IMG/VR virus record: IMGVR_UViG_2537561506_000022
Coordinates: 1 to 37,331 of that record
Strand: one strand, 5' to 3'
DNA from: a virus
Lineage: Duplodnaviria > Heunggongvirae > Uroviricota > Caudoviricetes
DNA: 37,331 nucleotides
The stretch's first letter is position 1. Every line of letters starts with the position of its first letter. The position numbers were made by a program, and so were the translations under genes. The notes under the pieces were generated by a model. That model was not told the origin of the DNA. It searched no databases and saw only the letters and a list, made by a program, of their open reading frames with translations. Positions 1,909 to 4,619 of this stretch are shown here, one piece after another.

Positions 1909-2604
1909 ATGACAGCTACAAAAAGCACGTCCATTTTTTCTTTCGAATCCCAAGCCGATATACGAGTAATCGTCATTAATGGTGAGCCATGGTTTATCGC
2001 TTCAGATGTTTGTCGGGCTATAGGCATAGCAAACCATCGAGATGCTGTTCGAAAACTTGATGATGATGAGAAGGGCGTCGCTTCAACCGACACCCCTGGC
2101 GGTGAGCAAGAATCGATCATCATCTCCGAGTCAGGCCTCTACACACTGATCCTCCGCTGCCGCGACGCAGTGACACCAGGCACTATCCCCTACCGCTTTC
2201 GTAAATGGGTTACAGGTGAGGTTCTTCCTCAGATCCGCCGCACCGGAAGCTACATTAAAAACTCGCTCCCGCAGGAAGAACGCATAAAGATGCTTGCCGA
2301 CCAGGTAGCCAGCGCCACGGCGTCAGCAGTGATGCAGGCGATGAAGATAGAGAACAAAACCTACAGTGCCCCGCTGAAGCCCGGCTACCGCAGCCTGATT
2401 CATTCTCCGTCTGGTGTTCTCGGCCTGACTGAGAACTCACTGCTGATGAATCTGCTGAACCAGTTACAGGAAGACGGGCATGATGTATCGGGCGCAGCGG
2501 CGGAGCTGACCACCATGTTCTGCTACATCGTCGGTGTGAGCAAATGCCTGCGTGATATCCAGACCCACGCGGAGTACATCAACGACAAGGCAGGGTTCTT
2601 CTGA
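1909..2604 (+). CDS. Phage antirepressor, Bro-N N-terminal domain plus shared C-terminal domain
   Basis: 231-aa ORF; N-terminus FSFESQADIRVIVINGEPWFIASDVCRAIGI is a Bro-N signature; C-terminal ~80 aa identical to the C-termini of ORFs 3681..4619 and 35363..36049. Confidence 0.8.
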   Translation: MTATKSTSIFSFESQADIRVIVINGEPWFIASDVCRAIGIANHRDAVRKLDDDEKGVASTDTPGGEQESIIISESGLYTLILRCRDAVTPGTIPYRFRKWVTGEVLPQIRRTGSYIKNSLPQEERIKMLADQVASATASAVMQAMKIENKTYSAPLKPGYRSLIHSPSGVLGLTENSLLMNLLNQLQEDGHDVSGAAAELTTMFCYIVGVSKCLRDIQTHAEYINDKAGFF

Positions 2605-2812: not shown

Positions 2813-3352
2813 GTGTTAAGTGAAGAAATGCAATTTGCCATGGCTGTAGCTCAAATCGTAAGTGCAGTCGCGGTTTCGCTTGGCTTGTTCATAGCTATCG
2901 CTACTATTATTTATAATGTAAATACAGCGAGAAAAGTACACACTTCAGTATTCCTTGGTGAAAGCAGGTTTGATGTAGATTATAAGAAAGGCCTATCTAC
3001 TATGCGCCGCATTCACGAATCGAACAAATCATTCCGCTCTTATATGTATCCAAGCAATGGGCAGGCTGATCTTACGGATGAAGAAAAGACAGAGAAGAGA
3101 GAAATAATTTACTGCCTAGGTTTCTACGAACGCATGGCTGTGAGCGTGAAGCGGAAAACTTATGATGAGACCATGATTAAGGAAGTATTTTACAGCTCCG
3201 TTGTAAATAACTATCAGATTGCGCTACCTCTTATACAAGCCATTAGAGAAAAAGAAAACATAAACACATATTTTAAAGAATATGAATGGTTGGCCACACG
3301 ATGGAAGGATTGTCCATTGAAGGATAAATCCCCGTGGTACAAGTTTTGGTAA
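2813..3352 (+). CDS. Membrane-anchored protein of unknown function (N-terminal TM helix plus ~140-aa soluble domain); cargo candidate
   Basis: 179-aa ORF, GTG start with GGAG 7 nt upstream (alternative ATG at 2828); hydrophobic segment FAMAVAQIVSAVAVSLGLFIAIATIIY; locally AT-rich; no family recognised by eye. Confidence 0.6.
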   Translation: MLSEEMQFAMAVAQIVSAVAVSLGLFIAIATIIYNVNTARKVHTSVFLGESRFDVDYKKGLSTMRRIHESNKSFRSYMYPSNGQADLTDEEKTEKREIIYCLGFYERMAVSVKRKTYDETMIKEVFYSSVVNNYQIALPLIQAIREKENINTYFKEYEWLATRWKDCPLKDKSPWYKFW

Positions 3353-3445
3353 GCCCGCGTTGCGGGCTTTTTTATGGACGAAACAAAAGTTAGTGCTACA
3401 CTCATTGACGCCACATTGAGGTGGCTTATAGATGGAAATTTCACA

Positions 3446-3607
3446 ATGAAAAAAGCATTTGCTGCACTGTTCGTTTTGTTGTCTCTGGTAGCTTCAACTC
3501 AGGCCTTTGCCGGTCGTTGTCAGCACGACAGCGATACTGCTGCTGACGGCTCCCGCTGCGGTGGGCGTTCTGCGGATTCCCGCCCGGGCGGCGGTGGCAT
3601 TCGTTAA
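3446..3607 (+). CDS. Small predicted secreted peptide (signal peptide plus 31-aa Cys/Gly/Arg-rich mature part)
   Basis: ATG at 3446 in frame of track ORF 3374..3607; MKKAFAALFVLLSLVASTQAFA looks like a Sec signal peptide with an AFA-G cleavage motif; the coding region is GC-rich unlike its neighbours; weak RBS. Confidence 0.35.
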   Translation: MKKAFAALFVLLSLVASTQAFAGRCQHDSDTAADGSRCGGRSADSRPGGGGIR

Positions 3608-3630
3608 AAACAAGGCCGCGAAAGCGGCCT
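3603..3630 (-). terminator. Intrinsic terminator for the leftward antirepressor transcript (AGGCCGC-GAAA-GCGGCCT plus U-run on minus strand)
   Basis: 7-bp stem with 4-nt loop; minus-strand reading gives the hairpin followed by TGTTTTTAAC. Confidence 0.55.
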
Positions 3631-3642
3631 GTGACATGTCAC
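3631..3642. promoter_or_regulatory. 12-bp perfect palindrome GTGACATGTCAC (second copy at 24368..24379)
   Basis: Exact palindrome present twice in the window, both times followed by N-CTA and both just 3' of a minus-strand gene. Confidence 0.3.
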
Positions 3643-3657
3643 GCTAGTTTCGTTTTG

Positions 3658-3920
3658 CACGTCCCTGTGCCGCCGTTCTGTCAGAAGAACCCTGCCTTGT
3701 CGTTGATGTATTCCGCGTGCGTCTGGATATCACGCAGGCATTTGCTCACACCGACGATGTAGCAGAACATGGTGGTCAGCTCCGCCGCTGCGCCCGATAC
3801 ATCATGCCCGTCTTCCTGTAACTGGTTCAGCAGATTCATCAGCAGTGAGTTCTCAGTCAGGCCGAGAACACCAGACGGCGAATGAATCAGACTGCGGTAG
3901 CCTGGCTTCAATGGATAACC
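3658..3920 (-). repeat. Copy B (inverted) of the ~260-bp antirepressor C-terminal repeat
   Basis: Reverse complement matches copies A and C; slightly more diverged at its 5' end. Confidence 0.85.
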
Positions 3921-4619
3921 ATAACATTTTGTCTGTGTTTTAATTGCCTCACGAAGCGCATCTAACATCTTGACTGCCACTTCATCATTCTCTGATGCAG
4001 ATCCAGCAGGGAGATACTCCCCTTCAAGCGGAACCCGAGCAACAAGAGACAACGCTTCGGCAAATTGATCTTCACCAATTTCTTTGTACGAACAGCCAAA
4101 ATGAGATTTCAGTGACGACCACATGGTGATCATCGCCTTAGCCTGTTTTTCTTTTGGCAGAGACTGACCGCGACTCATGACGAGTTGTTTAATGGCTTCC
4201 TGCTGTTCAGTTGTTATTTTACCCGGCAACGCCTTTTTAGCTTTGCGTGGGTTAACCACATGGCCTTTAGTCCAGTACTCGTAGAGCACATCGTCACACT
4301 CTTCCTGATACTGGATTACCTTGTCGCGGATTTCAGGGCGGACTTTGTTAGGGCTGATGCTGTTCAACCAAGCTGCCAATTTTCGTAAAGCCATACAAAT
4401 CATGGCTTGCACCCCACCGGCAGAAGGTATGGTGATTTCCACCATACCCTTCGAGAAGCGTTGAGAAATCTTCTTATGTTGAGATTTCCAGTCTAGCCCC
4501 ATTCCCTCAACGATAGGTTTCATTGGGGTATACGGTTCGCCGTTGTGATTGACAACATAAAGCTCTGCGCCGTGGAATGGCACGTTGATAGTAGATACTG
4601 CTGTTGCTATACTCGTCAT
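3681..4619 (-). CDS. Phage antirepressor (P22 Ant-like N-terminal region plus shared C-terminal domain)
   Basis: 312-aa ORF; position and orientation downstream of an Arc-like gene mirror the P22 immI arc-ant layout; C-terminal ~80 aa shared with ORFs 1909 and 35363. Confidence 0.75.
   Translation of the reverse strand: MTSIATAVSTINVPFHGAELYVVNHNGEPYTPMKPIVEGMGLDWKSQHKKISQRFSKGMVEITIPSAGGVQAMICMALRKLAAWLNSISPNKVRPEIRDKVIQYQEECDDVLYEYWTKGHVVNPRKAKKALPGKITTEQQEAIKQLVMSRGQSLPKEKQAKAMITMWSSLKSHFGCSYKEIGEDQFAEALSLVARVPLEGEYLPAGSASENDEVAVKMLDALREAIKTQTKCYGYPLKPGYRSLIHSPSGVLGLTENSLLMNLLNQLQEDGHDVSGAAAELTTMFCYIVGVSKCLRDIQTHAEYINDKAGFF

Follow-up and report, generated by a model that had tools for sequence, protein, structure and literature searches.

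The window, i.e. the whole stretch of 37,331 nucleotides of DNA analysed here, is an epsilon15/phiV10-like (Uetakevirus-type) prophage whose closest phage records are TL-2011b, phiv142-3, HEMP4 and EC.W1-9; Klebsiella phage BUCT711, among the matching records, is classified as a Uetakevirus. The gene order starts with a tailspike gene (− strand), an 85-aa ORF (+) and a BRO-N or ORF6N anti-repressor gene (+), and continues with variable cargo (+), a 53-aa ORF (+), one or more variable genes (−) and the gene of a virion protein of 824-1129 aa (−). In the window the BRO-N gene lies at 1909-2604 (+), the cargo is a DUF4760 gene at 2813-3352 (+; GC content 0.39, one predicted N-terminal transmembrane segment), and the 53-aa ORF runs on the + strand from the ATG at 3446 to the TAA at 3605-3607, convergent with a P22_AR_N-type anti-repressor gene (ant; 3681-4619, −). 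The small ORF had been singled out in a preliminary description made from the sequence alone, which rightly took it to be carried by a prophage. Further along, the segment 4950-6065 is very AT-rich (GC content 0.25-0.37) and encodes two proteins: one of 153 aa, whose N-terminus by eye resembles Arc/Mnt, and one of 203 aa, which has a hydrophobic segment at its N-terminus and a weak TIR-like (ThsB) match in PADLOC (E 0.007). The segment probably represents a second accessory cassette that was acquired separately.

The precursor encoded by the small ORF (MKKAFAALFVLLSLVASTQAFAGRCQHDSDTAADGSRCGGRSADSRPGGGGIR) splits at a predicted cleavage site into MKKAFAALFVLLSLVASTQAFA|GRCQHDSDTAADGSRCGGRSADSRPGGGGIR. 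Codons 1-22 (3446-3511, +) make up the predicted signal peptide and are followed by a mature peptide of 31 aa (3512-3604, or 3512-3607 with the stop codon, +), which contains Cys25, Cys38 and the tail GGGGIR. In an alignment of 76 sequences, pairwise identity reaches 77% in the conserved core from Cys25 to Gly49 (3518-3592, +), whereas it is only 31% over the 22 N-terminal residues, where the features of the n-, h- and c-regions are nevertheless kept. The earlier picture of a small ORF with a predicted signal peptide and a 31-aa mature peptide, bearing two Cys and a Gly-rich/Arg tail, is thus accurate. An in-frame ATG further upstream, at 3374, lies in the T-run of a terminator and gives a 77-aa ORF, which is the version used by some annotations (PHROG 3117, which is the call from 3374, and several database entries of 70-85 aa). 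In other genera the extension 3374-3445 is replaced by unrelated sequence or stops, and the MKK start alone is conserved; hence, we take the 53-aa reading as the gene, and the start at 3374 is probably a start-site mis-call. The RefSeq protein WP_000708858.1 is exactly the 53-aa CDS, on 100%-identical DNA of E. coli SJ2D.

The gene is already catalogued. Homology searches, which the preliminary description had proposed as a check, returned identical proteins in RefSeq (WP_000708858.1), UniRef (A0A0A1A7U0_ECOLX) and phage TL-2011b (gp43) under the name 'transmembrane anchored protein', and the exact sequence belongs to a cluster of 92 members with that same name. PHROG 14503, which is the same family as the RefSeq one and holds identical sequences, is matched by its HMM over the full length (residues 1-53 of 53, E 2.3e-40); its label is 'membrane associated protein', in the moron category, with no function attached. 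The gene is carried by 499 of 5426 complete E. coli genomes (~9%) and by 316 IMG/VR viral contigs, and the exact protein is found in 18,473 index blocks of a public assembly collection. It is therefore among the commonest uncharacterised prophage genes of E. coli, with an identical protein in thousands of assemblies.

The left edge of the conserved module lies at ~3351, as seen from E. coli copies with unrelated upstream genes, where a terminator scan found an intrinsic terminator that ends the upstream cargo gene (hairpin AAGCCCGC-GTT-GCGGGCTT plus T-run, 3351-3369, +). On the other side, between the 53-aa ORF and the convergent ant gene, the same scan found the hairpin AGGCCGC-GAAA-GCGGCCT (3613-3630), which scores as a − strand terminator, is kept in relatives with loop variants and bears the annotation 'terminator' in phage phiV10; it probably serves both strands. 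Directly after it, a perfect 12-bp palindrome (GTGACATGTCAC, 3631-3642) forms the right edge of the module; loci from E. coli, Klebsiella, Kluyvera and Buttiauxella retain it, and it may serve to bind a protein or belong to a bidirectional terminator. The block conserved regardless of neighbours thus extends over ~3351-3643, i.e. ~295 bp from terminator to terminator plus palindrome, in the order terminator, promoter-like leader with a hairpin, ORF, terminator. Among 81 loci with the identical protein, we counted 10 types of upstream flank and 12 types of downstream flank (600 bp on each side) in more than 50 combinations, while the 297-bp module itself has a median identity of 96%. The cargo beside the ORF is DUF4760 here, YafO-like in TL-2011b and DUF2335 or others elsewhere; on the downstream side the ORF adjoins Ant-Arc here, and other loci have unrelated small ORFs in that place. 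Since identical copies sit amid so many combinations of flanks, the 53-aa gene is a constant island in a hypervariable accessory and immunity region and moves independently of the cargo. The preliminary description had suggested that the ORF and the adjacent cargo gene differ in origin, and this holds, on account of the same ~295-bp module standing beside at least 10 upstream cassettes and not of codon use, from which it had been argued. In fact, the gene is the only fixed element where these phages shuffle candidate defence and immunity cassettes.

Some details of this shuffling deserve mention. At least 10 cassettes alternate at the position of the DUF4760 gene, which is itself one of them; others are a YafO-like toxin, DUF2335 with a 108-aa ORF, and more. 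The slot looks like a defence or accessory hotspot, and PADLOC gave no match there. A 270-nt inverted repeat (2336-2605 and 3680-3949, 92% complementary) brackets the cassette of the DUF4760 gene and the small ORF. Its arms correspond to the last ~80 codons, shared between the BRO-N and P22_AR_N ant genes, which means that the two anti-repressors have different N-domains and the same C-domain (PHROG 450/15539). Eleven genomes have a BRO-N gene convergent to the ORF, and the one examined for an inversion driven by this repeat (UTME-12) has a second BRO-N gene, not a simple inversion, so that we discarded this idea. In some prophages, as at the E. coli UTME-12 locus (L073, 2597-2863), the small ORF is followed by a BRO-N gene convergent to it and by a P22_AR_N pseudogene that is truncated. 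This arrangement shows ongoing anti-repressor domain shuffling and decay around a constant small-ORF module.

The gene has its own terminator (3613-3630), is insulated by the one at 3351-3369 and is present or absent among related phages, as morons are. phiV10, typing phages 9 and 10, and PAS61 share the terminator segment only and lack the ORF, so the gene is dispensable for the phage. We infer that the ORF serves the prophage as a functional accessory gene with autonomous expression, i.e. a moron, between the genes of the tailspike and of the large virion protein. Classical morons, such as bor and lom of lambda and those of HK97 and HK022, have their own promoter and terminator and are expressed from the prophage. 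The 53-aa gene resembles them in being a terminator-flanked unit between conserved modules, present or absent in relatives and with an envelope-directed product. It differs in that the product is far smaller, that it is the constant and not the variable element of its region, and that the promoter is here only a candidate.

Conservation of the module might concern its DNA or the peptide. We aligned by codons the window and 16 other loci (17 enterobacterial relatives in all; core of 25 codons), the latter from E. coli and Klebsiella phages, Enterobacter, Franconibacter, Rahnella, Kluyvera, Rouxiella, Pectobacterium, Pantoea, Tolumonas and Buttiauxella. Over the core of the 17 loci, the mean pairwise difference at codon positions 1, 2 and 3 is 0.12, 0.09 and 0.56, and third positions vary in 25 of the 25 codons. 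The Nei-Gojobori method gives for the core a mean pS of 0.71, which is saturated, against a mean pN of 0.10, and between the window and Buttiauxella pS is 0.79 while pN is 0. Judging from these substitutions, the peptide in the 3446 frame is under strong purifying selection across enterobacterial genera. Such selection in frame excludes a relic, an incidental ORF or conservation at the level of DNA or RNA only; a search of Rfam with 3200-3800 returned only sub-threshold chance matches, hence a known RNA does not explain the conservation either. The preliminary description had allowed that the ORF may be a relic, which is contradicted by the gap between pS and pN and by the many assemblies with the exact protein.

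Still, two hairpins and a palindrome bound the block exactly at the point where flanking cassettes are swapped, and phages of the phiV10 type retain the terminator part only. One might thus argue that the ~295-bp block is kept mainly as DNA, as a terminator or linker and recombination junction for the exchange of cargo, or in another form as the regulatory region of the immunity (ant/arc) locus, and that the ORF is incidental or decaying. This is at odds with the saturation of synonymous sites between genera while the peptide core is nearly unchanged, and with the occurrence of the same peptide motif in unrelated DNA contexts in Rhizobiales and cyanobacteria. The ORF is also intact in 81 of the 81 loci surveyed, though these had been chosen by a protein match. 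Taken together, we give conservation as mere DNA hardly any credence and regard the peptide as the object of selection.

As for composition, the preliminary description had contrasted the GC-rich codon use of the ORF with the adjacent gene. The contrast in GC content is real (0.574 in the ORF and 0.69 in its mature part, against 0.39 in the DUF4760 gene), but codon use is not GC-rich: GC3 is 0.48, the mean of the window (0.485), so that codons for Gly, Arg, Ala and Pro, rather than a preference among synonymous codons, account for the excess. Upstream of the start codon there are two candidate promoters, neither of which was called by a consensus promoter scan. One is a putative extended −10 element, TGcTACACT (3394-3402, +), read from the sequence; its TAnnnT is positionally conserved in the 17 relatives, with TACAAT at this position in those from Klebsiella and Buttiauxella. 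The alternative, TTGACG (3405-3410) and TATAGA (3427-3432) on the + strand with a 16-nt spacer, is not conserved and would give a nearly leaderless mRNA. The ORF may be transcribed from its own promoter. Folding gave a leader hairpin, GCCAC-ATTGAG-GTGGC (3410-3425, +), ~20-35 nt upstream of the start codon, and for the leader region 3404-3460 a z-score of −2.1. Most of the 17 relatives have a hairpin at the same position with different stems (GCCGC/GCGGC, CGCCGT/ATGGC(G), CTGC/GCAG), and these changes are suggestive of covariation; the hairpin may instead be an operator-like inverted repeat. Hairpins at the 5' end of mRNA are known to stabilise transcripts, and if transcription begins near 3409-3411 the leader hairpin would stand at precisely this end. 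The ribosome-binding site is weak, as previously noted, with only a Shine-Dalgarno-like GGA (3434-3436, +) in the window, 9 nt before the ATG, though 17 of 17 enterobacterial relatives keep a purine-rich element at this position, which in Pectobacterium and Tolumonas takes the form of a good AAGGA.

The N-terminus was assessed by a heuristic, feature-based approach on the alignment of 76 homologues. The window protein has an MKK n-region, a mean Kyte-Doolittle hydropathy of 2.49 over residues 4-17, and the sequence A20-F-A22|G at the predicted cleavage site. A basic N-terminus followed by a hydrophobic stretch is kept in every homologue, with Lys at position 2 in 64 and at position 3 in 62 of the 76, and the best 12-residue Kyte-Doolittle mean is at least 2.15 in all of them. 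Position −3 is small in 76/76 (Ala in 50, Ser in 16, Val in 9 and Thr in one), position −1 is Ala in 73/76, and Gly comes next in 67/76. A charged n-region, an h-region of 10-15 residues and small residues at −3 and −1 are the features of a Sec signal cut by signal peptidase I, and all are present. This pattern is the signature of such a signal peptide and not of a membrane anchor, in agreement with the Sec-type signal and AFA|G motif predicted in the preliminary description. With these features present, the 'anchored' of the database name is doubtful, and the name 'transmembrane anchored protein' is probably misleading. A lipoprotein processed by signal peptidase II was rejected for want of a lipobox, the residues before Cys25 being A-G-R (A-G-N in most relatives). 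Only some cyanobacterial relatives have a lipobox-like sequence, ...VTSC, at a separate position further upstream.

The database name does imply another topology, in which the N-terminal segment stays uncleaved and the product is a type II single-pass inner-membrane micro-protein with a periplasmic tail of ~30 residues, perhaps a regulator like MgrB, which binds the periplasmic/transmembrane part of the sensor kinase PhoQ. The resemblance is not trivial: both are ~50 aa long, with a short basic N-terminus, a hydrophobic helix (~18 residues here) and, in the periplasm, a short tail that carries two conserved Cys. AlphaFold2 also gives residues 2-19 as a single helix, and some relatives have the motif attached to the membrane through a lipobox or a transmembrane helix. 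Yet, there is no homology to MgrB or to other NCBIfam small-protein models, the hydrophobic core has the length of a signal peptide, and small residues at −3 and −1 are kept (76/76 and 73/76) amid the divergence of the N-terminus, which is expected of a cleavage site and not of a simple anchor. The conserved AxA motif of the family predicts release from the membrane. We consider a lasting anchor unlikely and a cleaved signal peptide the better reading.

The mature peptide belongs to a family that extends far beyond enterobacteria. Its core motif is C-x4-D-x-A-x-DGSRCG-x-R-x4-RPGG, with all invariant columns present in the window protein; C25, A32, G35, S36, C38, R41, R46, G48 and G49 are invariant in the 76 sequences. 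When one genome per species was scanned, 57 loci emerged, in Gamma- and Alphaproteobacteria, cyanobacteria, Bacteriovorax and Polyangiaceae (a MAG). Among them are the genera Mesorhizobium, Rhizobium, Agrobacterium, Devosia, Bradyrhizobium, Methylobacterium, Microvirga, Kaistia and Aureimonas, the cyanobacteria Dolichospermum, Anabaena and Nostoc, and Vibrio. Nearly all of these 57 loci encode a signal peptide, then ~26 residues of the form C-x4-D-[RT]-A-[AS]-DGSRCG-x-R-[SA][AS]-x-x-RPGG, then one to four more. An exhaustive HMM search retrieved 356 representatives of 50%-identity clusters (E <= 1e-3), and a word-indexed search 754 clusters at 90% identity. In longer proteins the motif stands between a signal peptide and a transmembrane helix, or at the extreme C-terminus after a transmembrane helix or a lipobox plus linker, or in two or three copies, and it is always on the predicted extracytoplasmic side. 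In Enterobacterales the neighbours of the motif gene are phage genes, and several Rhizobiales members lie in prophages, beside terminase and portal genes. No recurrent partner emerged among 150 neighbouring genes from 40 of the 44 non-enteric loci, no Pfam family occurring more than twice in the 150. Many non-enteric homologues are chromosomal, in unrelated contexts, and hence a purely anti-phage role is not implied.

Database searches placed the motif in no described family. Pfam, searched with the peptide, with fragments of distant relatives and with multidomain relatives, has none for the motif, the peptide being without a match at E <= 1 and at E <= 10, and NCBIfam gave only insignificant matches, at the level of the signal peptide, to HxsA3 and MarB. 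PADLOC had no match for the 53-aa protein, and its PHROG matches carry no exclusion annotation. A sequence profile search of the PDB yielded nothing at E 10, Foldseek with the AlphaFold2 model had no match in the PDB, and literature searches by database name, phage and motif string turned up nothing relevant. The AlphaFold2 model built on the 76-sequence alignment (pLDDT 76.8) comprises a signal helix (residues 2-19) and a compact loop in which T31 and R37 form a bridge; with a shallow alignment, its mature part was uninformative. Several resemblances were considered and abandoned: an Ivy-like CxxHD loop, the His not being conserved outside enterics; a mimic of RALF-like plant peptides, with no Pfam match and differing registers; and the Excalibur or DxDxDG motif (DxDxDGxxCE, PF05901), with no Pfam match at E 10. 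Excalibur/DxDxDG motifs are calcium-binding loops (Pfam PF05901), and the present motif is like them an extracytoplasmic, Cys-flanked, Asp-rich loop with D-G, but its spacing is DxDxxxDG. The first Asp (D28) is replaced by Pro, Ser or Ala in many members and is not conserved outside enterics.

The proposed course of events is as follows. The 53-aa precursor would be exported by the Sec pathway, and signal peptidase I would cleave it after Ala22 (AFA|G). The hydrophilic peptide of 31 aa would then stay in the periplasm, where a disulfide between Cys25 and Cys38, the two invariant Cys that stand 12 residues apart in the mature peptide, would close a loop of 14 residues; the expectation of a disulfide in the periplasm rests on the DsbA system. 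To these steps, taken together with the status of moron, we give a probability of roughly 60%. More speculatively, the nearly invariant surface D30-x-A-x-DGSRCG-x-R-x4-RPGG might bind a broadly conserved component of the envelope or periplasm, and the lysogen might benefit, most plausibly through an envelope altered to exclude incoming phages, or else through the modulation of an envelope enzyme or sensor.

A small, Cys-containing, Gly-rich and secreted product that is phage-borne and widespread could also suggest a peptide released from the cell, such as a bacteriocin- or microcin-like toxin or an intercellular signal. But the leader is a Sec signal, not one of the double-glycine type, and Sec export in diderms delivers only to the periplasm. 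There are no adjacent genes for immunity, maturation or export and no conserved neighbour, and the motif is also found as a tethered domain of larger envelope proteins, which points to a local binding module. A released toxin or signal is thus very improbable, compared with a peptide retained in the periplasm. Signal, toxin and envelope modifier were the roles that the preliminary description had considered possible, and we see nothing that speaks for a toxin.

For the periplasmic peptide, superinfection exclusion is the most natural guess on account of its position: ant, arc and mnt-like genes adjoin the locus, which we take to be the counterpart of the P22 immI/sieA neighbourhood. Phages are known to encode envelope factors of this kind, e.g. 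Sp and Imm of T4, SieA of P22, Llp of T5 and the Cor lipoproteins. Like them, the 53-aa protein is encoded by a phage or prophage and predicted to be exported to the envelope. Unlike them, it is not a lipoprotein and has many chromosomal, non-phage homologues, and no similarity in sequence or fold was detected. An exclusion role in particular therefore remains a doubtful proposition, with the odds clearly against it.

The gene is well supported, small and functionally anonymous, and a small exported prophage moron is of an ordinary kind. Three points are absent from the databases and the searchable literature: how widespread and how extremely conserved the 25-residue motif is, the fact that larger envelope proteins use it as a module, and the place of the gene as the fixed point of these phages' variable region. 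Once assigned, the target of the motif would annotate several hundred protein clusters together, and it could reveal a new way for a very small periplasmic peptide to alter the Gram-negative envelope or phage susceptibility.

One might speculate further that the 25-residue motif is an undescribed and ancient extracytoplasmic mini-domain of diderms with a universal periplasmic target, e.g. a cell-wall enzyme, a protease or a component of outer-membrane biogenesis. It would exist in free, lipid- or membrane-tethered and repeated forms and as fusions to envelope domains, SH3-type ones among them. The free form would have been captured repeatedly by temperate phages of Enterobacterales and Rhizobiales, and enterobacterial podophages would retain it, alone among the genes of their most variable region, because it manipulates the target, e.g. 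for superinfection exclusion. We put this forward tentatively, as an idea that is more likely wrong than right. Four of the longer proteins (P0158, P0177, P0119 and P0195) carry, in one to three copies, a longer Cys-rich variant, C-x-C-P-Y-x4-NGS-x-CG-x-RSAYS-x-PGG-x2-P-x-C, for which Pfam has no model, nor does it recognise a family in P0177. In one case this variant motif (CPCPY..NGSRCGGRSAYSRPGG..P.CY) adjoins a bacterial SH3 domain, and in P0177 it adjoins a segment that is Excalibur-like by eye.
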